Source of the DNA: a virus
Length of the DNA: 64,000 nucleotides
Strand: one strand, 5' to 3'
Virus record (IMG/VR): IMGVR_UViG_3300024327_000005
Location: 22 to 64,021 of that record
The notes under the pieces were generated by a model. That model was not told the origin of the DNA. It made no database searches and saw only the letters and a program-made list of their open reading frames with translations. How positions within the stretch are numbered: position 1 is the stretch's first letter; the number at the start of each line of letters is the position of its first letter. This document shows positions 2,653 through 52,550 of this stretch, in pieces. Position numbers and translations under genes: made by a program.

Positions 2653-2724
2653 AGACTCTTAGCTCAACGGTAGAGCAGCGGACTTTTAATCCGTTGGCTC
2701 TGGGTTCGAATCCCAGAGGGTCTA
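2653..2724 (+). tRNA. tRNA-Lys(TTT), CCA not encoded
   Basis: full cloverleaf: AGACTCT/AGGGTCT, loop CTTTTAA, T-loop TTCGAAT. Confidence 0.93.
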
Positions 2725-2742
2725 TTCTTTATTTCTTTAAAT

Positions 2743-2806
2743 AGGTGTATTATCTCAACTTTCTTTAAAAAAGAGTGGTTGGTGTTTACGGATAATGCAC
2801 CTTTTT
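2743..2806 (+). other. long hairpin between tRNAs followed by a T-run (terminator or processing element)
   Basis: AGGTGTATTATC(2743-54) pairs with GATAATGCACCT(2791-2802); inner CAAC/GTTG and CTTT/AAAG helices. Confidence 0.45.
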
Positions 2807-2816
2807 AAACATGTAA

Positions 2817-2889
2817 GGGCCTATAGCTCAGTGGTTAGAGCTCCCGACTCATAATCGGCAGGTCCCAGGTTCAAATCCTGGTGGGCCCA
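2817..2889 (+). tRNA. tRNA with CAT anticodon, most like Ile2 (lysidine type); elongator Met not excluded; CCA not encoded
   Basis: GGGCCTA/TGGGCCC acceptor, anticodon arm GA-CTCATAA-TC as in bacterial Ile2, T-loop TTCAAAT. Confidence 0.88.
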
Positions 2890-23668: not shown

Positions 23669-23875
23669 ATGAAAACAATATGCTTAAACTTGCAAGATTG
23701 CGGTTATAGCGAAGTTATACCTGCTTCCCGGTTTAACGAAATCAACCTCAATGAACCCTTCACTACCTGTCCTCTCTGCGGGTATTACGCAGTGACTACA
23801 TCTCAAAATGTAATTTCAGATATAGACTTAAATATATATAAAAAGATATACAAACAATTAAGGAAAGATGAATGA
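23669..23875 (+). CDS. small zinc-ribbon protein
   Basis: CLNLQDCG...CPLCG; overlaps the start of the 966-aa gene. Confidence 0.55.
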   Translation: MKTICLNLQDCGYSEVIPASRFNEINLNEPFTTCPLCGYYAVTTSQNVISDIDLNIYKKIYKQLRKDE

Positions 23876-26772
23876 TCTTTATTAACCTCCTCGCTAATAT
23901 AGCCCCATCGAATTTAAATAGACAGCCCTACATAGACGCTCTCACTAAGCTTATAGTGATGGAGGATCCAGAGTCTCCAAATACGACTTACTATTCTGGT
24001 AATTTATCCGAAGCAATCAGGAATACAGAAGGCGTTGGTAATTTCGTTGAATCCTTAAACCCAACTCTATTTAAGGATGAAGATTCAACGTTTCCGCTAA
24101 TAGACGTAATTCACATGCGGAATAGCGTTATAAATCTAAATAGCATTTTAAGATCTTCGTATCCAAACACATCTTTTTGGAATCGATATCTCAACGGTAA
24201 TGTCGCGCAATTAAGTGCCCAACATCCAACGCTGCTTGCAAATGCATTATGCTTGAATCAGAACTTCAGAAATATTACCGGGTACAATCGAAGAGAACCT
24301 AATCTTTATTTTTCTAAAATCTACGAGGCATTCAAATGCACTAGAGGTTTAAACGAAAAGATATCAATCAACAACGAAGCTCATGCGTCGTTGTTAAATG
24401 ATCAAAAAAATCTATGCGCTGTTAGCAGATTCAAACCTCACATATTGCAAATCGACAACAATCAACACACTGTAAAGGATCAGCATCAAGTTTTTCGGTA
24501 CCTAAGAGACTTCATTCTAATCACGCTAGCGCTGAAAGAAAAGCCAGAAGAGAGTACGGACGAAGTGTTGAAGCAGTTGGAGTCTGTAATTCCTGACGAA
24601 AGTCTTTTTGCATATACTCAAACAAGACGCACAGATAACGATACCAGTTTCAATAACTTGAATTTCAATAGAATCACCACTACGCTGTTAGCTCAGTCGC
24701 CAGAAGAACTAACTCGACAGGTAAATTCTATAGACAGCTTAACTTTCAACACTTATATCAAGCAAAACCGCCTGGGCCTTTTCGATGGGAAAGAAGTTTT
24801 CTCTTTTTTCTCAAAAGCGTTTTTTCAAAAATTCTTACATATTTCAAACAAGAAATCAGTACATGAAGACGCTTCTGAATCAGAGATACTTCAAAACATT
24901 GTTTGTTTCGATACGATTCCGCCAATAGACCTCCAATTAGCGCCGTCTAAAGGTAACCATAATAACTGGAGCTATGGTGACGGCTTGTCTTCTGAACCAG
25001 CCCATTCTCGTGCAATGATCCTTCCAAGTCAAGATTCTAATGCAGATTTCATCCCAATTGGCCTTGGTACTGGAGTTACATTCATGCATGGAGCGCAAGA
25101 CATTTACTCAATAAAACTACAAGAACACATTGAGTCTTTACCCCAATCAAGAGTCGTTGGGTTGATTTCTAATGGGTTCACAAAAAGAACCCAAAAAGAA
25201 AAGTTTGAATTCATATCACTTACAAAGAAACAGTCAACGATTCGAAAAGGGTTTTTCATACCCACATTATTTCCAATCGAATACAGAGATGAGAACTTTG
25301 AAATACAAAAAGGATATTCGTTCTCCTTAGTTTGTTTAAGTTCTACATATGACGAAATGTGTAATAAGTCAAGAAGCAGAGAGGAGTTGCTTAATATGCT
25401 GAGTAACTACCAGACAACTGACGGTATGTATTTTATCGACAAGGCTCAGCACATAGCCTTACAGAAAGAGATCATGAAGGGGTTAATAGAGTACTCAAAC
25501 TCTCTAATCCCATCTTTCAAGGATTTAAGTCCACAAAGCCTCAACTCGCTTAAGGCTACCTTAAAAGCGAAGAAGGAAAAAGCAGAAACCTTTTTATCTA
25601 CTATTGATATTGATTTTTTCGATCACTTATCTTCTGAACCAAATGTAAATCCTCTTATAAAAAAGAAATACAACAAAGTATCCACAGGCTACAATCGCTT
25701 ATCTAAAATAAATACTGAAAAAGAAAATTCCTCAGTATTAGCTAGTGCTAACGTTGAGTCCCAGCTGGGTGCAATTGACACAAAAATGGCACAAATCGAA
25801 ATCTTTAAGCAAGAGATCGCTAAATCCGAAATTGAAATTACGAAACACTTAGCGAACCTAAAGGAAAGTTTTAACTCTCGAGTAGAGATATCCAGCACAC
25901 TAATGCTGAACCGAGAACTATACGAATCAGTTAAAATTCGTTATGAATCTGCATGTCAAAAAGCTAAGGACGATAAAGATTACATTAGTAATGGGTTCTT
26001 TAAAAACTTATCAATCAGTAACCAGATCACCATTTTTGAACTAATTCTGACAGACGAGACTGACTCAGATAATCAAATAAAATATGATCAAGATTTTTTC
26101 AATGCTAATGGAAATGCGAATTTCCAATCTTTTGATAAAAATGTGCATAAGATCCAAAGTGTAAAATTTTTAATTAATTCTCCTTCGATAATTAGCGTAG
26201 ATAATGGCGCAAAAAGTAGTATTTGCGGCGGACCCTACGTCGTCTCTGTTTTTAGAGGTGCGTTACAAATCGCTTTGGCCTATCCAAGCTCAATACATGG
26301 AGTTTCAAATGGTGACATCCTTGTACATCCTCATTCATCGCAAATTAGAAAGAATAATTTTGTAACTCAAACCCAAGAGTATCAATGGATGTCTGCCTGT
26401 CTCGGTGAAGCATCCTCTCTGATCTATAGCGCTTTCGAAAGTAACAATTTGAAAACAATTTTGCTGGCAGCATTAACTTGGGTTAAAAGCGCCAACAGTA
26501 CCGATGTCTGGGGCAAAAGATATAAATTTTTCCCAAAAGCAACTGAAATAAACTTCGAAACTAATCCACCTACAAGTCCTGCTGTCGACGAAGAGGTCAT
26601 TAACGAAGATGAAATTCACGACTTTCTGGAAGAAATGATTTCTGAAGATTCAACTGAAGCTGAATCAGAGATTGAAATAGTACCCTCCGAAGAGCCAGAA
26701 GCTCAAGGATTTTCACCTGATCAATTTGCTCAACCTGTAACTGGCTATGTACCAGCCTATAATCGATCTTGA
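23872..26772 (+). CDS. large protein: unknown N-terminus, coiled coil, C-terminal E2/UBC-like domain, acidic tail
   Basis: HPH (819-821) then SACLG (Cys843) and helices ending W..SANSTDVWG; first gene of an E2-JAB-E1-Ubl cluster. Confidence 0.65.
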   Translation: MIFINLLANIAPSNLNRQPYIDALTKLIVMEDPESPNTTYYSGNLSEAIRNTEGVGNFVESLNPTLFKDEDSTFPLIDVIHMRNSVINLNSILRSSYPNTSFWNRYLNGNVAQLSAQHPTLLANALCLNQNFRNITGYNRREPNLYFSKIYEAFKCTRGLNEKISINNEAHASLLNDQKNLCAVSRFKPHILQIDNNQHTVKDQHQVFRYLRDFILITLALKEKPEESTDEVLKQLESVIPDESLFAYTQTRRTDNDTSFNNLNFNRITTTLLAQSPEELTRQVNSIDSLTFNTYIKQNRLGLFDGKEVFSFFSKAFFQKFLHISNKKSVHEDASESEILQNIVCFDTIPPIDLQLAPSKGNHNNWSYGDGLSSEPAHSRAMILPSQDSNADFIPIGLGTGVTFMHGAQDIYSIKLQEHIESLPQSRVVGLISNGFTKRTQKEKFEFISLTKKQSTIRKGFFIPTLFPIEYRDENFEIQKGYSFSLVCLSSTYDEMCNKSRSREELLNMLSNYQTTDGMYFIDKAQHIALQKEIMKGLIEYSNSLIPSFKDLSPQSLNSLKATLKAKKEKAETFLSTIDIDFFDHLSSEPNVNPLIKKKYNKVSTGYNRLSKINTEKENSSVLASANVESQLGAIDTKMAQIEIFKQEIAKSEIEITKHLANLKESFNSRVEISSTLMLNRELYESVKIRYESACQKAKDDKDYISNGFFKNLSISNQITIFELILTDETDSDNQIKYDQDFFNANGNANFQSFDKNVHKIQSVKFLINSPSIISVDNGAKSSICGGPYVVSVFRGALQIALAYPSSIHGVSNGDILVHPHSSQIRKNNFVTQTQEYQWMSACLGEASSLIYSAFESNNLKTILLAALTWVKSANSTDVWGKRYKFFPKATEINFETNPPTSPAVDEEVINEDEIHDFLEEMISEDSTEAESEIEIVPSEEPEAQGFSPDQFAQPVTGYVPAYNRS

Positions 26773-26796: not shown

Positions 26797-27915
26797 ATGC
26801 AATCCATAACTACATATAAAGTTTTAAATAACTTGCCTTACATTAATATAACCTATAAGGGGCTTTTAGCAATTAAAGAAATTGTAAAAATTGCGCCCCA
26901 AGAAGCTCAATGGTTCCATACTGTTGAACCCTTTGCTTACAAGCAATCCCCACATGAAATTCAACTACTTTTGTCTGATAAGATTTACATTCCAAGTCAA
27001 AACACTTCAGCAGTACAAGTAGACACTACATCTGCAATGATGATGGATTTTTATAAAGACCTACAAAAAGACTATCAAGACCAGAATGTTGTGAACCAAA
27101 AACTTACAGCAATGACGTGCTGGTGTCACAGCCATCACAACATGTCTCCAAATCCCAGCCATCAAGACGATTTACAATTCAACTCCTTTATCTCTCTCGC
27201 AAAAGATCAGGAGCAGAAATCTTGGCAAATTATGCTAATTTTTAACAAGAAAGATCAATTCTATTCAAGAGTTTATGACCCCCACACGGCTACAGTCCAC
27301 GAGGGTGTGCCTGTTAATATAATCAATGATTACAATTTCAATTACATACATCAGGCTGCTAAAGATAAGTTCAAAAAGCCTAAGTTAGCCCCCAAAAATT
27401 TGTGGTCTTTCAATCAAGGTAGTTTTGGTGCCAAATCTTCAGCCCCAAAGACGGCAGCATCCCTAGACTTGAAGCCCACAGGTGGGCAATCTGTCAATTG
27501 GGAAATTGCCATCGAAATACTGGCAGAAGCTTTCGATTGGTATAGCTTCGAAAGCTTATCGACGAGCCAACACAATAAAAAGATTGACTTTACTGAGCTT
27601 AGAACTAGCGACTTCTTTGCTACATTAGCAAAATATCTAGATGACAAAGAAATTATATTGTTTTCATATTTAGTTTCTAAGCGGGCATCTGACATATTGC
27701 CTATATTTACAGAAAAAGCATTTGAAAAGAAATTTGCACTAGCTGACTATGATGATTTCGAAGCCGCAATTATAGAAGAATATACTTCTTGCATTGAAAA
27801 TGAAACTTTTACTCTAAGTGAGATAAGTGAAGCGCTGCAAGATACATTAAAATTAACTGAAATTTCTACAAAAAAAGATTGCAAGGAGTTCCTTAAAGAA
27901 AATGGTCACATCTAA
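26797..27915 (+). CDS. JAB/JAMM (MPN+) metalloprotease with C-terminal extension
   Basis: E36 plus H111-x-H113-x7-S121-x2-D124, the canonical JAMM motif. Confidence 0.85.
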   Translation: MQSITTYKVLNNLPYINITYKGLLAIKEIVKIAPQEAQWFHTVEPFAYKQSPHEIQLLLSDKIYIPSQNTSAVQVDTTSAMMMDFYKDLQKDYQDQNVVNQKLTAMTCWCHSHHNMSPNPSHQDDLQFNSFISLAKDQEQKSWQIMLIFNKKDQFYSRVYDPHTATVHEGVPVNIINDYNFNYIHQAAKDKFKKPKLAPKNLWSFNQGSFGAKSSAPKTAASLDLKPTGGQSVNWEIAIEILAEAFDWYSFESLSTSQHNKKIDFTELRTSDFFATLAKYLDDKEIILFSYLVSKRASDILPIFTEKAFEKKFALADYDDFEAAIIEEYTSCIENETFTLSEISEALQDTLKLTEISTKKDCKEFLKENGHI

Positions 27916-28624
27916 CGTAAGTTTTTTAAGACATGGTGCCTTTTTTGGTCCTGAAGATTCTCAAGAGCGAATACTGAACATTATTGGCGTTGGCGCAACA
28001 GGAAGTTGGGTTGGATATCTAGCTGCAAAAATGGGCTGGCAGCACTTCCGAGTATGGGACGCAGACACGGTAGAGAGCCACAATCTGCCCAACCAGATAT
28101 ATGATATCTCTCAGGTTGGGATGCCAAAGGTTGAGGCATTCAAGCAAAAACTGCTTGAATTCAACCCAACTGTACAAGTCAAGACCTATAATGAGTTTTA
28201 TACTTCTGAAAAGTACAGAAACGAATTGGAAGATTATGTGTTTATTGGTGTCGACACTCTGTTCGCACGCAAAGATATAATGGAGGGAGCTAAATCACAT
28301 TTACTGATAGAGGGAATCTTCGAAAGTCGAATGGGGTTTCAGCACGCTGAAATAAACTATCTAGATCCAGCCTACCCTTCTCAAGTGGACGAGTACCTGT
28401 CTCTCTTGAAAACCGATGATGAAGTTGAAGAAAGCGCGTGTAATGCACGTATAATCACAACTTTAACTTGTATAATCGCCTCAAACATAGTACATACTAT
28501 TTGCGCTCTTGCAGCGCAAGAAAGACACGGGGAGTGTTATGCTCCTCCAAAAAAACAAATGTTTTCTCTTCCTTCTAACATAAATACCCCCTTATCAATC
28601 CATACACCAAGGATAGCTAAATGA
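27902..28624 (+). CDS. ThiF/E1-like ubiquitin-activating enzyme
   Basis: R10, IIGVGATGS, WDADTVESHNLPNQ, IGVDT, ESRMG, candidate catalytic Cys180 (ESAC). Confidence 0.9.
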   Translation: MVTSNVSFLRHGAFFGPEDSQERILNIIGVGATGSWVGYLAAKMGWQHFRVWDADTVESHNLPNQIYDISQVGMPKVEAFKQKLLEFNPTVQVKTYNEFYTSEKYRNELEDYVFIGVDTLFARKDIMEGAKSHLLIEGIFESRMGFQHAEINYLDPAYPSQVDEYLSLLKTDDEVEESACNARIITTLTCIIASNIVHTICALAAQERHGECYAPPKKQMFSLPSNINTPLSIHTPRIAK

Positions 28625-28809
28625 CAGTTAAAGATCAACTTCAAGAAGTTCTAACTCTAATTACAGCAGCAGTTCAAGATGCTGAAAAATTTGACTCTGG
28701 TAACGATACCGCTGGAAAGCGGTTACGTATGGCTGCACAAGAAGCCAAAACAAAACTTCAACAACTTCGAGTAAACATCCAAGAAGAGAGAAACTCAAGA
28801 AAACAATAA
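28621..28809 (+). CDS. histone H1-like Hc1-family small protein
   Basis: DAEKFDSGNDTAGKRLR...LR..IQE resembles the GNKAAGTRAR motif family. Confidence 0.6.
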   Translation: MTVKDQLQEVLTLITAAVQDAEKFDSGNDTAGKRLRMAAQEAKTKLQQLRVNIQEERNSRKQ

Positions 28810-28853: not shown

Positions 28854-28879
28854 AAAAGGAAGCCTGGCTTCCTTTTTTT
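28854..28879 (+). terminator. intrinsic terminator
   Basis: AAAAGGAAGC-CTG-GCTTCC followed by T7. Confidence 0.75.
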
Positions 28880-28899: not shown

Positions 28900-29118
28900 A
28901 TGAACAACATCACACTAATAATCATCCCCGGCCCTGGCGCTCGCTCTGTCCAAATCGATCAAAACATTACTGTTGCTAGCTTGGTCTGCTCAGAAAACCT
29001 ACACGGTAGAGATATTATTATTAACGGCGCCGGAGTTCCGGCGGCACAATTCGAAACCACAACAATTCCTAACGATGCAGAAGTCTTCGCAACTGGATCG
29101 GTGAAGGGCAACCGTTAG
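28900..29118 (+). CDS. ubiquitin-like (ThiS/MoaD beta-grasp) protein Ubl-1, precursor ending KG|NR
   Basis: 70-aa core ...EVFATGSVKG; lies in the E1/E2/JAB cluster; paralogous to Ubl-2 and Ubl-3. Confidence 0.8.
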   Translation: MNNITLIIIPGPGARSVQIDQNITVASLVCSENLHGRDIIINGAGVPAAQFETTTIPNDAEVFATGSVKGNR

Positions 29119-29423
29119 TGGGTGCATGCACCTTTTTTGATGAAGCATTTGGAGATTCAGCTGAAGAAGCCTTTCAAGCAGCAAAATCAGATGCAAATTG
29201 GATGCATGGCCACGCCGGTTATACCGGAACTATTGCTGAAAAAAACGACTTCTCTATGGCTTCAAACGAACTCTTAGCAGAAGTCGCAGCTTACAAGCTC
29301 GCCAGATCTCTCATCGCTACTGACTATTGCGACAAGTGGGGGCTTGCTGGATGCATCCAAATCACTAATTCACCTAACAATTCACTTAACAAATATTTAT
29401 TCTTTGGCTGGGCTTCTGAATAA
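29118..29423 (+). CDS. conserved phage hypothetical protein X1
   Basis: GTG start overlaps the Ubl-1 TAG; HGHAGYTGTIAEK motif. Confidence 0.7.
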   Translation: MGACTFFDEAFGDSAEEAFQAAKSDANWMHGHAGYTGTIAEKNDFSMASNELLAEVAAYKLARSLIATDYCDKWGLAGCIQITNSPNNSLNKYLFFGWASE

Positions 29424-29460
29424 GTATCCAGCCAAACACATCTAGAACTAACCAACACAC

Positions 29461-29480
29461 AAGGAGTGAAAACTCCTTTT
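29461..29480 (+). promoter_or_regulatory. GNRA-capped hairpin before Ubl-2 (terminator or processing signal)
   Basis: AAGGAGT-GAAA-ACTCCTT-TT. Confidence 0.45.
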
Positions 29481-29503
29481 CAACATATAAGAAGAAAAAA
29501 ATT

Positions 29504-29746
29504 ATGTCTAACGCTACATTAATCATTATACCTGGACCTGGCGCTCGTTCTATTCAGTTGGATTCCAACATGACGATTGCTCAACTTGTTTGTAGAGAAA
29601 ATCTACACGGTCGTGACATCATCATTAACGGCACTGGAGTTCCAGTGGCACAATTCGAAACACAAATCATTCCTAATGGTGCAGAAGTTTTTGCAACCGG
29701 CTCTGTAAAGGGCAACTCTTTAAATTTTACCATGCGTCTTCTTTAG
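29504..29746 (+). CDS. ubiquitin-like protein Ubl-2, precursor KG|NSLNFTMRLL
   Basis: 56/70 residues identical to the Ubl-1 core (hand count). Confidence 0.8.
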   Translation: MSNATLIIIPGPGARSIQLDSNMTIAQLVCRENLHGRDIIINGTGVPVAQFETQIIPNGAEVFATGSVKGNSLNFTMRLL

Positions 29747-30018
29747 GGGCTGGAGCTAAGCAAGCTTACTCAAATCTGATTGAATCAGAAAGTGCTTGGA
29801 AGGAACACTCAAGTATTCCTTCCGCATTCCTAGAGACTAAAAGGTACAAGATCGTCATAACGACCCCTTTTAGCACTGAAGAAGACGCCTTGGATTTCAT
29901 TTCAACCAACTCTCCTTTTAAAATGCGTTCTAAGACTGCTGGATGCGTAATCCTTGGAGTTGAAGACGGACTAACTAACTACTTATTTTTTACACAAACA
30001 CAGGATAAAAATGACTAA
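29719..30018 (+). CDS. start-less paralog X2 of X1 in the -1 frame of Ubl-2 (frameshift fusion or pseudogene; not in ORF track)
   Basis: 99 open codons FKFYHASSLG...KTAGCVIL...TNYLFF; no ATG/GTG/TTG until codon 58; begins at TTTAAATTTT. Confidence 0.55.
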   Translation, partial: FKFYHASSLGAGAKQAYSNLIESESAWKEHSSIPSAFLETKRYKIVITTPFSTEEDALDFISTNSPFKMRSKTAGCVILGVEDGLTNYLFFTQTQDKND

Positions 30019-30325
30019 CATCACATTAATAATCATACCTGGCTCTGGCGCTCGCCAAGTCTCAGTACAACCTGGTTCTACTATTGCAGACCTTGTTTCA
30101 AATGAAAATCTTCACGGTCGAGATATCATCGTTGACGGCGCTGGTGTTCCAGCGACGCTCTGGGCAAGCACTCAGGTAACCTCAAATGCAGAAATTTTCG
30201 CAACGGGCTCCGTAAAAGGCAATGCCAAAGGCGGAGGTCGACCTGCTAATGCTCCATCAGGAACTGGCCGCCCTTCTGGGGGTGGCCGAGGCAACAATCC
30301 TCCATCCTCTGGCTCTAAAAAATAA
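30011..30325 (+). CDS. ubiquitin-like protein Ubl-3 with a 34-aa Gly/Pro/Ser/Asn-rich C-terminal extension
   Basis: same 70-aa core ending FATGSVKG, then NAKGGGRP...GGGRGNNPPSSGSKK. Confidence 0.8.
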   Translation: MTNITLIIIPGSGARQVSVQPGSTIADLVSNENLHGRDIIVDGAGVPATLWASTQVTSNAEIFATGSVKGNAKGGGRPANAPSGTGRPSGGGRGNNPPSSGSKK

Positions 30326-38827: not shown

Positions 38828-39865
38828 ATGGCAAATAAAAAAATTACAGGGATCCCCGAAATTGATATGATTGCAGCTTCTATTGCCAAGAAATTTGGCA
38901 AAGAAGACATTATGAGTTTAGGACCTAAATATGAAAAAGTTACACCAATCTCTACAGGCTCAATATCTTTGGATGCTTGTCTTGGCGTTGGAGGCTTACC
39001 TAATGATCGTGTCGTCGAAATATATGGTCCGCCCAGTGCCGGAAAAACCTCTCTCTGCCTACAAGTACTTAAACAGTTTACAGAAAAATATGGATATGAC
39101 AGACCTCCTGTCTATGTTGATCTTGAACGCACTACTGGTTTGGATCTTGTCACTTCTATGGGGCTCGAACCAAAAAAAATGATTTTTTGTTATCCTGACA
39201 CCGCCGAAGAAGCACTTCAGCTCTGTCAAGACCTTGGTAAGACAGGTAAAGTCGGCATAATAGTTTTTGATAGTATTGACGCTGCTCAAAGCGAAAAAGA
39301 CACAAAAAGATTAATGAATGAAACGGGAGTAGGCGACTTACCTCGCTTACTTTCAAAAGCTTTGCGTTCTATATCCAAGATAAGCGTTGATAACGAATGT
39401 CTATACTTGTTTATTAATCAAGTTAGAATGAAAATTGGCGTTATGTATGGGAACCCAGAAACAACTTCAGGTGGCAACGCCATACCTTTTTACTGCTCGG
39501 TTCGACTTCGAGTAAGCAGTAAGCCCTCTAAAGATCAAGATGGCGCCATAACAATGAAGGTTAAAGTTGTCAAAAACAAAGTTGCTCCCGCTTTAAATAA
39601 AACTGCTGAGTTTGACTTTATATGTGGAAAAGGCACAGATCCTTATTTAGACATAATTGGTTATGCTAAAGACGTAGGGTTGATGAGGTTTGCAGGCTCA
39701 TCCGTCAAGTGGATAAACCCTGCAACAAAAGAAGAAGAGTCTCTTTGTACTGGTGGTAAGCTGGGGGCGAAAAGTCATTTTATTGACAACCCAGAGGACT
39801 ACCAACTGCTATATCATCATATCCTCAGTTCAGATAGAGAAGACGAGAATGAAGATGACGCATGA
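38828..39865 (+). CDS. recA: RecA recombinase
   Basis: STGSISLD, GPPSAGKT, VFDSI, FINQVRMKIGVMYGNPETTSGGNA. Confidence 0.95.
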   Translation: MANKKITGIPEIDMIAASIAKKFGKEDIMSLGPKYEKVTPISTGSISLDACLGVGGLPNDRVVEIYGPPSAGKTSLCLQVLKQFTEKYGYDRPPVYVDLERTTGLDLVTSMGLEPKKMIFCYPDTAEEALQLCQDLGKTGKVGIIVFDSIDAAQSEKDTKRLMNETGVGDLPRLLSKALRSISKISVDNECLYLFINQVRMKIGVMYGNPETTSGGNAIPFYCSVRLRVSSKPSKDQDGAITMKVKVVKNKVAPALNKTAEFDFICGKGTDPYLDIIGYAKDVGLMRFAGSSVKWINPATKEEESLCTGGKLGAKSHFIDNPEDYQLLYHHILSSDREDENEDDA

Positions 39866-41183
39866 CTGCTCCAGGCATACAGCTAAAAATAGTCAGGATA
39901 TAACCTCCAACCACACTGAGTCAAAGTATGTACATCTACATGTGCACACAGAATACTCTTTGCTTGATGGCATAAATAAGGTCTCTAGGCTCCCATCTTT
40001 TGTTAAAACTATGAATCAGCCAGCAGTTGCAATGACAGATCATGGTAACATTTCTGGGTGTTATAGGTTTTACAAAGAGTGCAACAAAGTAAATGTTAAG
40101 CCCATAATAGGCATGGAAGCTTACTATTCCATTAACGACAGAACTCTTCGAGAGCCAGACGAAATGGGAAAGAGCTATTACCACTTAATCCTTTTGGCTC
40201 AAAATAATATTGGCTTACACAACTTAATAAAGCTGTCCTCTAAAGCCTATACCACTGGCTTCTATAGGAAGCCTAGGATTGATGATAAACTTCTTGCAGA
40301 CCACTCGGAAGGTCTAATCGCTACCACTACTTGCTTGGGTAGTCGCGCCTCTCAGCTGATACTAAATAACGAAATTACTGCAGCCGAAAAATTAATTCAT
40401 CATCATCGAGCCATATTCAAAGATAGATTCATCGTTGAATTACAATTGCACCGAGAAGAAGAACAGCAGGCTGTAAATAAAGTCTTGCAGCAAATCGCTT
40501 TAAAAAACAACTTCCCGATGATAGTCACAAACGATTGTCATTACGCTTATGAGCATGATAAAATGCATCATGAAGCAGCATTATGCTTGCAGACTAAGAC
40601 AACGTTGTCGAATCCAAAGAGGTTTTCATTTGGTGAAATAAAAGTTCATATGGCAGATCATGACTGGATGTGGAACGAATCTTCAAATCAAGGAATGCCA
40701 TACGACGTTATTTCGAACACTGTCGAACTTGCGAATATGATAGATTCAGACACTTATTTTATGGACAGGATGAACAGGTACCCGAAGTTTAAAGACCTTC
40801 CCGAAGGTTATACTAGCATTGACTTTTTAGCTCTAGAAAGCCAGCATGGACTATTCAATAGGTTTGGTCAGATGCCGACTTTGGAATATCAAAACAGATT
40901 GACTCATGAACTTAATGTAATCAAAAAGATGGGATTCTCTGACTACCTGTTGATTGTAGCTCAGTTTATGGATGGAGCGCGAACAAGAGGTGTCCTTCAT
41001 GGGCCTGGTCGTGGCTCTGCTGCAGGGTCCCTAATCGCTTATGCACTAGGCATCACTGAAGTTGATCCAATCAAATACGGTTTAATCTTTGAAAGATTTT
41101 TAAATGAAGGTCGAGGAGCTACCCCTCTGATCTTCAACAAGCAAATGGCCATCAAAGCAGATGGCATAACTATACCTTTTTAA
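39849..41183 (+). CDS. dnaE: DNA polymerase III alpha (DnaE) part 1: PHP domain through the GRGS/FERFLN palm segment
   Basis: HLHVHTEYSLLDG, TDHGN, TNDCHY, GPGRGSAAGSLIAY, FERFLNEGR, then a short tail and stop. Confidence 0.9.
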   Translation: MKMTHDCSRHTAKNSQDITSNHTESKYVHLHVHTEYSLLDGINKVSRLPSFVKTMNQPAVAMTDHGNISGCYRFYKECNKVNVKPIIGMEAYYSINDRTLREPDEMGKSYYHLILLAQNNIGLHNLIKLSSKAYTTGFYRKPRIDDKLLADHSEGLIATTTCLGSRASQLILNNEITAAEKLIHHHRAIFKDRFIVELQLHREEEQQAVNKVLQQIALKNNFPMIVTNDCHYAYEHDKMHHEAALCLQTKTTLSNPKRFSFGEIKVHMADHDWMWNESSNQGMPYDVISNTVELANMIDSDTYFMDRMNRYPKFKDLPEGYTSIDFLALESQHGLFNRFGQMPTLEYQNRLTHELNVIKKMGFSDYLLIVAQFMDGARTRGVLHGPGRGSAAGSLIAYALGITEVDPIKYGLIFERFLNEGRGATPLIFNKQMAIKADGITIPF

Positions 41184-41943: not shown

Positions 41944-43566
41944 ATGGATCAAAAAAGAAAAGAAATATTACAGTACATTGATAAATGTATTATAGATGAA
42001 AGAATTAATCAAGTAGACCCTGATTTCCTAGAGTTTGAAATTAAAATGTCTTCTTTAAAAGATTTACAAATGATTTCAGACTGCTTGTATTCAGTTGCGA
42101 ACCTTCAAGATAAAGATCTTCACTTACCAATTTTCGCTAACAACCCCTATAATAGTATCTTACTTTATATAACTAGGTTGACAGATGAATTTGATTTTTT
42201 AAAAGCCAGGTCAAATACTATAGACGGATCTCCTCCTGATATTGATATTGACCATGATGCTTTAGATCGAGAAATTGCAATCGAGTGGTGTGCTGATTAT
42301 TGGGGTCAAGATAAAGTAGCGAATATAATAACGCACGGAACCTTTAAGCCAAAAAGTCTTGCTCGCTCTTATTATCGAATCACTGAAAAAGAGTCTGAAG
42401 ATTTAAGCGAGCTGTTAAAGAAGATTCCTCCACCTAAGTTTGGTAAGGAAGCTACATTAGAAGAGGTTCTTGAATTGAACCCTGAAGTTAAAGACGATGA
42501 GAGATATGGAGACTTCTTGGAATTCGCTGACAGGATAGAGGGCATGGTATCTAATTTTGGTATCCATGCCGCTGGAATTATCATTAGTGATAACGACATA
42601 GATGATATAGTCCCGCTATGGAAGAATAAAAAAGCTGAAAGAATAACTCAATTCGACAAAGACGAATGTGAAGAGTTAGGTCTGATTAAATTCGACTTCT
42701 TGGGAATAGATACTCTTTCTATAATTAAAGAGTGTGTGAGCCTTGTTGAAGAAAACCATGATGTTAAATTAAATCCATACGCTATTGAAGATTTTGACGA
42801 AGCCACATATGCCACATTAGACAAAGGCTTACTCACAGGAGTCTTTCAGATGGAAACTTCTGGCGTGGCTAAAAAGCTCATTGTAAAAATTAAACCAAGA
42901 TCTATAGAAGATTTATCTGCTATTTCTGCTTTGAACAGACCAGGTCCGCTACAAGCGGGACTCGACAAAGAATACATAATCAACAAATATAATAACGCTC
43001 CACCATCAAGTCTTCCAGAAAACATAGCTAACATTTTAAAAAGTTCATACTGGACTCTTGTCTATCAGGAGCAAGTTATGGAAATCTGTTCTAGTATCGC
43101 TGGGTTCACTCCCAAAGAAGCCGATGACATTAGGAGAGCTATGGGCAAGAAGAAAGTAGAAGTACTCAACGAGTATCAAAAGAAATTTGTAACTGGGTGT
43201 ATTTCTGTAGGTGGCTTATCAGAATCCTATAGTCAAGACCTATGGGAAAACCTTGTGGGATTCGCAGACTACTGCCTGCATGGAAGCACAAAGATCAAGG
43301 CTCAAGGTGGAGCCTTAAGTATTGAAAGTATTGTTAAAAACAAAATTCCTGCGACTATCGTTTCTGCTGATACTAATTCTGAAAGATTTTATTTACAAAG
43401 AGTTGCTCAATGGTATGAAAAAGGCAAAAAGAAATGTTATAAGTACGTAACAGATACTGGAGCTGAGATTTCTTGCACTCCAGAACATAAATTTTTAACT
43501 ATTAATAACGAAATGGTTGAAATTGAATCCATATATGAACGAAACTTAATATTAAAAACACAATAA
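41944..43566 (+). CDS. dnaE: DnaE part 2: catalytic palm/thumb/fingers fused to split-intein IntN
   Basis: PPDIDID, HAAG, KFDFLG, GVFQME, LNRPGP, VYQEQVM, RRAMGKK, FADY|CL. Confidence 0.92.
   Translation: MDQKRKEILQYIDKCIIDERINQVDPDFLEFEIKMSSLKDLQMISDCLYSVANLQDKDLHLPIFANNPYNSILLYITRLTDEFDFLKARSNTIDGSPPDIDIDHDALDREIAIEWCADYWGQDKVANIITHGTFKPKSLARSYYRITEKESEDLSELLKKIPPPKFGKEATLEEVLELNPEVKDDERYGDFLEFADRIEGMVSNFGIHAAGIIISDNDIDDIVPLWKNKKAERITQFDKDECEELGLIKFDFLGIDTLSIIKECVSLVEENHDVKLNPYAIEDFDEATYATLDKGLLTGVFQMETSGVAKKLIVKIKPRSIEDLSAISALNRPGPLQAGLDKEYIINKYNNAPPSSLPENIANILKSSYWTLVYQEQVMEICSSIAGFTPKEADDIRRAMGKKKVEVLNEYQKKFVTGCISVGGLSESYSQDLWENLVGFADYCLHGSTKIKAQGGALSIESIVKNKIPATIVSADTNSERFYLQRVAQWYEKGKKKCYKYVTDTGAEISCTPEHKFLTINNEMVEIESIYERNLILKTQ
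43273..43563 (+). other. split intein N-half (97 aa), DnaE type
   Basis: CL..T.I...VAQW...G...T.EHKF.T...I.ER.L matches cyanobacterial Npu/Ssp DnaE IntN; block B TxxH present. Confidence 0.92.
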
Positions 43567-51287: not shown

Positions 51288-51401
51288 ATGAAAATAATTT
51301 CAAAGGAGTACCTTGGAGAAGAAGAAGTTTATGATATTGGTGTAGCTTCTTTGGAAGGCAATCATAACTTTGTTCTCGAGAATGGAATTATAGCTTCTAA
51401 T
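51288..51401 (+). other. split intein C-half (38 aa)
   Basis: MKIISKEYLGEEEVYDIGV...HNFVLENGIIASN then Cys+1; compare Npu MIKIATRKYLGKQNVYDIGVERDHNFALKNGFIASN. Confidence 0.93.
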
Positions 51402-52550
51402 TGCTTTAATAAAGCACATAGCGTTAGCTACTCCATACTCACTTATGTAAGCGCGTATATGAAGACGCATTACCCTGTGGAGTTTTTTACTGCGTTGATG
51501 TCCACAAGAAGTAAAACTTTACAGCCTAAATCCTGGGCAATTAAAGCTCCTGAATACATTCAAGAAGCTAAAAAGTTTGGTGTGCATGTGTATCCGCCAT
51601 TTGTTAATCAAAGCGGATACGAATTCACAATCAGTGATGGCGAGATATACTTTGGGCTCAATGCAATCAGAGACGTCGGCAAGACTGCTGCTCGTATGAT
51701 TATTAAAGCTCGACAAAAAACACCCTTTAAATCTGTTAAAGATTTTATTTCAAGAATTAACCTTCAAAAAGTAAATACAAAAACGTTCGATGCTCTTGTT
51801 AAGGCTGGTGCCTTCGATAAGCTAGGTTACGATAGAGCAGGACTTCTAGAGAAGTGCCCTTTAATTTACGCATACGTAAGAGATCTTGAAGACTACAAGC
51901 AGCGCCAGTTAGACGTTGTGGAGCGAGACAATTACAACAACCAAGTTGTTCCGCTTATAGAGCGTAGAAACTTTCTTAGAAAAGAACTTAAGAAAATACA
52001 GAACAGAATTGATAAAGATAAAGTAAAAGAGAATGACATAGACAATTTTCATCTCATGTCTGAGGAACTAGAACCATTAGAAGCTGAGAACTTAAAGAAA
52101 AAAGTCTCTCTAAAGCCGAAAGAGAAGCCTGAGTTCCCCGAACTTCTTAAGTCAGATTCTATTGAGCTAGGTATGGAAGAGATATTAAATCAAGCAAATT
52201 ACATTGGTTGTTACATTGGTGGACACCCACTAGATTTGATATCAATTAAAAAAGACGACCTGGATTCATTAGAGGAAGGTGACTACGCTAACGTCGCTGG
52301 TGTCATCCTTTCTATGAAAGAGATTACAACAAGAAAAAACAAACAGATGGCTTTCGTTGAAATTAATGATAAAACTAGTTCAGCTGAAATTGTTATTTTT
52401 CCACAGCTATGGAAAAAAGTTTCAAGTCTAGGCTTAAAAGAAACTACAATCGTTACCTGCAAGGTAAAGGTTGAGCAAGTTGAGCCAGATATAAAGCTTA
52501 TTTTAAATTCAATTAATATTTATAAGGACTTTTATGAGATGGACTCCTGA
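51288..52550 (+). CDS. dnaE: DnaE part 3: split-intein IntC fused to C-terminal fingers, HhH and OB domains
   Basis: IASN|CFNKAH, HYPVEF, FGLNAIRDVG, KAGAFD, IGGHPLD, MAFVEINDKTSSAEIVIFP. Confidence 0.92.
   Translation: MKIISKEYLGEEEVYDIGVASLEGNHNFVLENGIIASNCFNKAHSVSYSILTYVSAYMKTHYPVEFFTALMSTRSKTLQPKSWAIKAPEYIQEAKKFGVHVYPPFVNQSGYEFTISDGEIYFGLNAIRDVGKTAARMIIKARQKTPFKSVKDFISRINLQKVNTKTFDALVKAGAFDKLGYDRAGLLEKCPLIYAYVRDLEDYKQRQLDVVERDNYNNQVVPLIERRNFLRKELKKIQNRIDKDKVKENDIDNFHLMSEELEPLEAENLKKKVSLKPKEKPEFPELLKSDSIELGMEEILNQANYIGCYIGGHPLDLISIKKDDLDSLEEGDYANVAGVILSMKEITTRKNKQMAFVEINDKTSSAEIVIFPQLWKKVSSLGLKETTIVTCKVKVEQVEPDIKLILNSINIYKDFYEMDS

Follow-up and report, generated by a model that had tools for sequence, protein, structure and literature searches.

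Eukaryotic ubiquitin is made from polyubiquitin genes (UBI4, UBB and UBC) and from ubiquitin-ribosomal protein fusions (UBA52 and RPS27A), and both the head-to-tail units and the tag-cargo fusions are released by a deubiquitinase. The Bil systems (BilABCD, types I and II) carry the ubiquitin-like tag (Ubl), E1, E2 and JAB on separate genes and work by a Cys-based relay and JAB trimming of C-terminal extensions, without an E3 (PMC10557695; bioRxiv 10.1101/2023.09.04.556158); their E1 has an IAD-AAD-CYS architecture (PMC11601596). Bub systems use Tyr and Ser oxyesters on E1 and E2, and include BubE (PMC11601596). The Iyer-Burroughs-Aravind type 6d/PRTRC systems combine a stand-alone small Ubl, ending in Gly, with JAB, E1 and E2 (PMC1779556). 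Finally, the microcin C synthetase MccB, whose substrate is MccA, is an E1-like enzyme that activates a C-terminal Asn (PMC11118369).

The locus described here belongs to a large marine phage whose DNA is present in seawater metagenomes; the stretch analyzed, of 64,000 nucleotides, is called the window. It is rather probable that this uncultured phage possesses its own ubiquitin-like conjugation kit, in which the tag genes double as precursor and cargo genes. As in Bil, the Ubl, E1, E2-like and JAB genes are separate, they share one neighborhood and carry catalytic-type Cys residues, and the predicted scheme is again a Cys relay with JAB trimming of C-terminal extensions and no E3. The kit is unlike Bil in being phage-encoded, among replication genes, rather than a host-encoded anti-phage activity. 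Moreover, its E1 is a minimal 240-aa protein with a single ThiF domain, its E2-like domain, which bears HPH and CLG motifs, forms part of a 966-aa protein, its tag probably ends in Asn, and several tag genes come with cargo. Like eukaryotic polyubiquitin, the phage genes set a single conserved junction ahead of either further units or cargo, as seen in Ubl-3 and in relatives; unlike polyubiquitin, the units are diverged (57-80% identical), have neither Gly-Gly nor, K69 apart, Lys, and one cargo is attached by a predicted -1 frameshift. The phage kit would, in other words, work like Bil with polyubiquitin-style genes.

The set of a stand-alone small Ubl with JAB, E1 and E2 also recalls type 6d/PRTRC, yet the phage tags probably end in Asn instead and none of the Prok_Ub, Prok-E2_D and PRTRC models reaches its cut-off at the locus (the PRTRC ThiF model gives the E1 23.5 bits, with a cut-off of 144.75). 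Conserved Cys residues stand in place of the E1 Tyr and E2 Ser of Bub, and no BubE-like gene was seen at the phage locus. With MccB the kit would share the activation of a C-terminal Asn by an E1-like enzyme, but the phage substrate is a beta-grasp protein and the phage E1 has a conserved Cys together with E2 and JAB partners. In the largely open-access literature covered, we found no account of such a kit, of an Asn-ended Ubl or of the peptide motif described below. If this reading is true, ubiquitin-type conjugation would be extended to a non-Gly, side-chain-reactive terminus linked to MccB chemistry, phages would run a tagging cascade of their own with polyubiquitin-style precursor genes, and a recoding event would set the ratio of tag to cargo.

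The locus and its enzyme genes

Going by their translations, genes of the window encode ThyX, ribonucleotide reductase, RecA and PhoH; a DnaE-type polymerase, a primase-helicase and a collagen-like tail fiber are present as well, and the Ubl locus sits amid the replication genes. The longest IMG/VR viral contigs with a syntenic locus measure about 160 kb in the near clade and 208 kb further out. The DnaE-type polymerase appears to be split in three ORFs (39753-41183, 41944-43566 and 51288-52550), the second and third of which correspond to successive stretches of phrog_405; the collagen-like tail-fiber gene and a 1196-aa gene without assigned function lie between the pieces. Genes for tRNA-Lys(TTT) and tRNA-Met are present at window positions 2653-2889.

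The enzyme genes and the elements that follow them are:

23872-26772, plus strand: 966-aa protein with a C-terminal E2-like domain (HPH at 819-821, putative catalytic Cys843)
26797-27915, plus strand: JAB/JAMM metallopeptidase (E37, H111, H113, S121, D124)
27902-28624, plus strand: E1 of the ThiF family, minimal and single-domain, 240 aa (Thr33, Asp118, catalytic-type Cys180)
28621-28809, plus strand: Hc1-family small protein, 62 aa (PF07432, E 8.6e-12)
28854-28879, plus strand: terminator-like hairpin with a U tract, lineage-specific and of unremarkable strength (z -1.5)

The E1 is a clear ThiF protein (E 1.5e-22), its Cys180 is kept in 52 of 52 sequences, and Thr33 is located in the nucleotide-binding loop. 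The Prok-JAB match of the JAB gene lies below the Pfam cut-off (E 0.004); the metal motif is intact and conserved in 43 relatives, and a JAB was seen at nearly every locus whose sequence extends far enough. In two loci (L318 and L319) the JAB matches come in two pieces, neither with an intact motif, and the gene may be split or interrupted. The E2-like domain, preceded by a long variable and coiled region, has no Pfam E2 match. It carries HPH...CLG, with Cys843 kept in 34 of 34 relatives and HPH conserved as well. An Atlas structure search with a low-confidence model gave TM scores of 0.37-0.47 to Prok-E2_D/UBC clusters, PRTRC protein B being the top match (TM 0.47). The E2 assignment thus rests on the motif and on weak structural matches. 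A family search with the Ubls, the passenger proteins X and X', the peptide and the E2-like domain returned nothing in Pfam, NCBIfam, PHROGs or PADLOC.

In the near clade the Hc1-family gene is syntenic between E1 and the first Ubl. The first-pass annotation had a terminator separating the tags from the enzyme genes; hairpin and U tract are indeed present, but they follow the Hc1-like gene and not an enzyme gene. A conserved terminator ahead of the Ubl array was considered and rejected, such an element being present before the first Ubl in 4 of 44 rows and the gap there being at most 25 nt in 33 of 44. Upstream of Ubl-2, a hairpin with a GAAA loop and a short U run (29461-29481, z -3.3) resembles the one before Ubl-1 and was possibly duplicated along with the gene.

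Tag cores and the end of the mature tag

Downstream of the enzyme genes the order is Ubl-1 with X, Ubl-2 with X', and Ubl-3 fused to a peptide:

28900-29118, plus strand: Ubl-1, 72 aa, with a stop that overlaps the start of X; Asn71 (codon 29110-29112) is the proposed mature end
29118-29423, plus strand: gene X, 101 aa, starting at a GTG that overlaps the Ubl-1 stop (TAG-TG)
29504-29746, plus strand: Ubl-2 zero-frame product, 80 aa; Asn71 codon 29714-29716
29722-29728, plus strand: slippery heptamer A_AAT_TTT, overlapping T_TTA_AAT; predicted -1 ribosomal frameshift
29722-30018, plus strand: gene X', -1 frame, without a start codon; stop overlaps the Ubl-3 start
30011-30325, plus strand: Ubl-3, 104 aa including a Gly/Pro-rich micropeptide joined to it in frame
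30224-30322, plus strand: the cargo peptide, 33 aa after Asn71, motif PSxTGxPSGGGRGN; elsewhere a free small ORF

The description of the three tags in the first-pass annotation was borne out by the ORF translations and their alignment. The cores are 70 aa long and ungapped, with pairwise identities of 56/70 (Ubl-1 and Ubl-2, as claimed), 44/70 and 40/70; all three read K69-G70-N71, and the tails after G70 comprise 2 (NR), 10 (NSLNFTMRLL) and 34 residues. K69 is, as had been noted, the sole Lys of each core, and this is above chance: Lys makes up 7.4% of window proteins, which gives a probability of about 0.005 per sequence of finding no other Lys in 68 aa, and K69 is likewise the only one in 135 of 155 relative cores. 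Such depletion accords with a tag that escapes self-modification, and mono-conjugation is therefore plausible on sequence grounds. By analogy with BilA, in which self-modification falls on a Lys five positions short of the end (PMC10557695), K69 could itself be the acceptor of a tag.

A search of PDB sequences with the Ubl profile gave no genuine match. The predicted structure (pLDDT 91) nevertheless has a beta-grasp topology and superposes on ThiS, MoaD and ubiquitin with Z of 8-9.9 and an rmsd of 2-3 Å over 61-67 residues, so that the models allow the three Ubls to be assigned to this fold with confidence. The modeled complex of an E1 dimer with Ubl-1(1-71) and ATP/Mg scored 0.82, the best control reaching 0.00, and passed a mark attained by 58 of 80 solved and 2 of 110 mismatched pairs. 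Contact agreement was at least 93% and partner pLDDT at least 90, and the modeled interface takes in Ubl residues 65-71 and E1 residues 31-34 and 116-120. Such a pass shows likeness to a textbook-like pair rather than binding, and the output is silent on which residue faces ATP.

Head-to-tail poly-Ubls of two to four units account for 48 of the 167 units of relatives and in-frame Ubl-X fusions for 11, and all of them share the KG-N junction. These fusions would need a protease, and an intact JAB, E1 and E2-like kit adjoins the tags; the earlier view of the Ubls as precursors that require JAB is strengthened to this extent. The cut after G70 that it proposed is probably wrong, and the "shared cleavage site" had been inferred, not observed. 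Structural register, family ends and E1 covariation all favor Asn71, and we judge it likely, from the sequences, that the mature tag ends there and that JAB cuts after it.

Asn71 is invariant in 267 of 267 distinct near units, 70 of whose genes end there. Residue 72 in the same units is any of 16 residues, with Pro, Asp, Glu and Trp absent, and a fixed residue 71 before a free residue 72 is what one would look for at P1 and P1'. Moreover, some fusions keep a downstream Met after the Asn, which suggests that the Asn belongs to the tag. In the structural alignment, model residues 67, 68, 69 and 70 correspond to ubiquitin 72, 73, 74 and 75; G70 pairs with ubiquitin 75 or 74, never 76, and with the penultimate Gly of MOCS2A, which would put Asn71 at the place of the terminal Gly (ubiquitin Gly76).

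The main alternative is that JAB cuts after Gly70, Asn71 being a cap or a P1' determinant, and that the tag is conjugated through a single Gly as in Bil. BilC cleaves BilA at V-A-G97/A98, where A98 is a one-residue cap, and this site resembles V-K-G/N of the phage Ubls (PMC10557695). In addition, known beta-grasp modifiers end in Gly, G70 is invariant over the whole family, and JAB is retained even where genes end in KGN followed by the stop. A search for loci without JAB, meant to separate the two cuts, favored neither, JAB being kept almost everywhere. Against this, a tail ending at G70 would be one residue short of those of ubiquitin, ThiS and MoaD. In distant representatives, KG is followed by Ala in 48, Asn in 42 and Gly in 1; 72 stop at this residue and none ends at KG. 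Position 71 is Gly in some phages: a single tag of a syntenic phage ends in KGG, and another lineage ends in KGG-A, where an Ala caps the di-Gly.

The E1 bears on the same question. Position 33 is Thr in 61 of 61 Asn loci, Val in 4 of 4 Ala loci and Ile or Ser in 3 of 3 Gly loci, and it is the best-separating E1 column, although the covariation rests on only 2-3 independent changes (three on the E1 tree, two of them forced). One retrieval pattern for the E1 loci favored Thr33; loci from an independent pattern comprised 18 Asn-Thr, 3 Ala-Val and 2 Gly-Ile pairs, and Thr33 was found in 52 of 52 Ubl-anchored loci. Three Ala loci retrieved through their Ubl as a test of the prediction all had Val at position 33. 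Were residue 71 cut off before the E1 came into play, no such covariation would be expected, and we take this as evidence that Asn71 is retained in the mature tag. Altogether, a cut after Gly70 seems unlikely to us.

Ends other than Asn have a precedent, a terminal Gly or Ala being activated for CBASS cGAS (PMC10097602). For Asn itself the precedent is MccB, which turns the terminal Asn into a succinimide and then into isoAsn-AMP; cyclization of the Asn-AMP outpaces attack by outside nucleophiles (PMC11118369), so that a stable Asn thioester needs explaining. The phage tag might therefore end in Asn71 and yet follow MccB-like succinimide/N-AMP chemistry, with imide acylation or a nucleotidylated effector as the outcome, and the retention of Asn over E1s only about 33% identical would agree with this. 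However, E1 Cys180 and E2 Cys843 are invariant, and the Ala- and Gly-ended relatives, which a succinimide mechanism could not serve, keep the same kit. We consider this chemistry somewhat less likely still than the Gly70 cut.

Passengers of the tag genes

Gene X belongs to an uncharacterized phage family and occurs as an in-frame fusion behind Ubl in relatives. Its model (pLDDT 88.6) gave a best Z of 4.7 among solved structures, a dodecin-like match within background, and the only proteins to match were uncharacterized ones of phages. Ubl-1 ends in Arg in the window and in His in its nearest relatives, and the sequences indicate that its tail is a by-product of the overlap and translational coupling with X.

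X' is a paralog of X according to a profile search (BLASTP gave no alignment between the two) and is very probably made by programmed -1 frameshifting as a 171-aa Ubl-2-X' fusion. As expected for such an event, a conserved in-frame heptamer of the X_XXY_YYZ type is followed by a conserved -1 ORF without a start. A_AAT_TTT occurs in the right phase in 10 of 10 start-less X' loci behind a Ubl, at 2, 3, 8 or 9 codons after G70, and is absent from X' genes that have their own start; the in-frame background is 3 in 18079 codons. The heptamer is retained across X' proteins of 38-91% identity, and in E. coli few frameshift motifs surpass the H_HH.U_UU.Y class in efficiency (PMC4066793). In two loci (L012 and L016), a mere two codons of open -1 frame precede the slippery site. 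An independent DNA run across the Ubl-2/X' region has no indel. RNA-run contigs over X, X' and the Ubl-2/X' junction have none either, but since such contigs are unable to show expression they carry no weight here. The ten-residue Ubl-2 tail is accordingly best read as the shadow of X', the zero-frame by-product of ribosomes that did not shift.

It could be argued instead that X' is a pseudogene in decay, or that it begins at an unusual start, and that the Ubl-2 tail is a true functional decapeptide. Downstream RNA structure at the window's own site is not significant (z -0.5), the window clade being without a strong stimulatory hairpin; a hairpin 3' of the slippery site, with z of -3.3 to -4.6, is found only in L007, L045 and L048, and L068 has a start-less X' without the heptamer. 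On the other hand, the X' frame is open for 95-112 codons across lineages and its first 30 codons vary 21:12:7 at positions 3:1:2. Most changes in the overlap are synonymous in the -1 frame but change the zero-frame product (4 of 5 variable columns fall at third codon positions of the -1 frame), and there is no near-cognate start upstream in the window's -1 frame. Decay or an unusual start is thus very improbable, and frameshifting is retained as our reading of X'.

An SD-like purine run lies 9 nt upstream of the heptamer and is dictated by the Lys-Gly codons. A comparison of a single with a double origin of the frameshift gave p-AU 0.19. In L007 (8637-8730), L045, L046 and L048, the slippery site is preceded, in the zero frame, by an SD-like AGGA and an in-frame GTG, and three of the four have a strong hairpin after it; in the L007 lineage, X' may arise in two ways, within a tri-Ubl fusion and from a start of its own, with the frameshift needed in either case. 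The X' of L068 (2098-2410), without ATG, GTG or TTG, stands behind an SD-like run and perhaps starts at ATC or ATT.

The third passenger is the Ubl-3 tail. The first-pass annotation mentioned similar PSxTGxPSGGGRGN peptides as stand-alone ORFs, and the databases confirm them: the family occurs at no fewer than 120 places in the GTDB genome set, spread over many bacterial phyla and one archaeon, and 38 viral contigs carry it too. Almost always it forms a small ORF by itself, about 25-70 codons long, whose synonymous positions vary freely; in 24 of the 167 units of this phage clade it stands behind a Ubl. By its sequence, then, the Ubl-3 tail is a widespread, unannotated stand-alone micropeptide fused as cargo. 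Of the suggestion that it may be a released or modified peptide, release would follow from the predicted cut. The fusion offers an experimental handle on a micropeptide family of many prokaryotic phyla, placed behind a putatively cleavable tag.

The free peptides do not appear to be a standard part of the kit, because no E1, JAB or Ubl gene was found within 3 kb of them. Their neighbors are recurrent (L111, L116, L118, L180, L182, L196 and others), the peptide gene standing between a divergent HTH-like gene (15 loci) and a convergent gene for a Cys-rich putative membrane protein (18 loci). A tblastn match in Synechococcus phage BUCT-ZZ01 was rejected, as it lies inside an unrelated 395-aa gene.

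Proposed mechanism

A ThiS/MoaD-like sulfur-carrier or cofactor pathway without protein conjugation is highly improbable: ThiS and MoaD are the best structural matches, relatives are named ThiS in databases and the E1 matches ThiF/MoeB models below cut-off, but the thiS model gives the Ubl 13.6 bits with a cut-off of 37.45, the tag has no Gly-Gly end, an E2-like Cys domain and JAB stand alongside, no thiamine, molybdopterin or sulfurtransferase gene is in the neighborhood, and Lys depletion suits a tag that avoids self-modification.

We therefore return to conjugation through Asn71. JAB would cut after Asn71 and leave a mature tag ending in K-G-N; the dimeric E1 would then adenylate the Asn carboxylate, Thr33 accommodating the Asn side chain. 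From there the tag might move via E1 Cys180 to E2 Cys843 and on to target lysines, which probably receive single tags, given that lysines have been purged from the tag itself. Each tag gene would also deliver a passenger, X by translational coupling, X' by programmed -1 frameshifting as the 171-aa fusion and the micropeptide in frame. A cut after Asn71 would free X (where it is fused) starting G-A- and the peptide starting A-K-G-G, and these starts would match the free genes after Met removal. Host takeover, counter-defense or assembly control are possible purposes. With some reserve, we lean toward a widespread phage Ubl family that is conjugated through a C-terminal Asn read by an E1-loop Thr and whose tag genes, in this clade, deliver an X-family protein and a micropeptide.

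Distant E1 homologs are also found in cultured phages (L352, 3262-5660; L351, 1736-5612), which might provide tractable models for phage Ubl kits. In crAss001 the ThiF gene adjoins a metalloprotease gene, and Xanthomonas phage PhiXhv-12 has an E1 together with a 140-aa upstream protein that ends in Gly-Gly.
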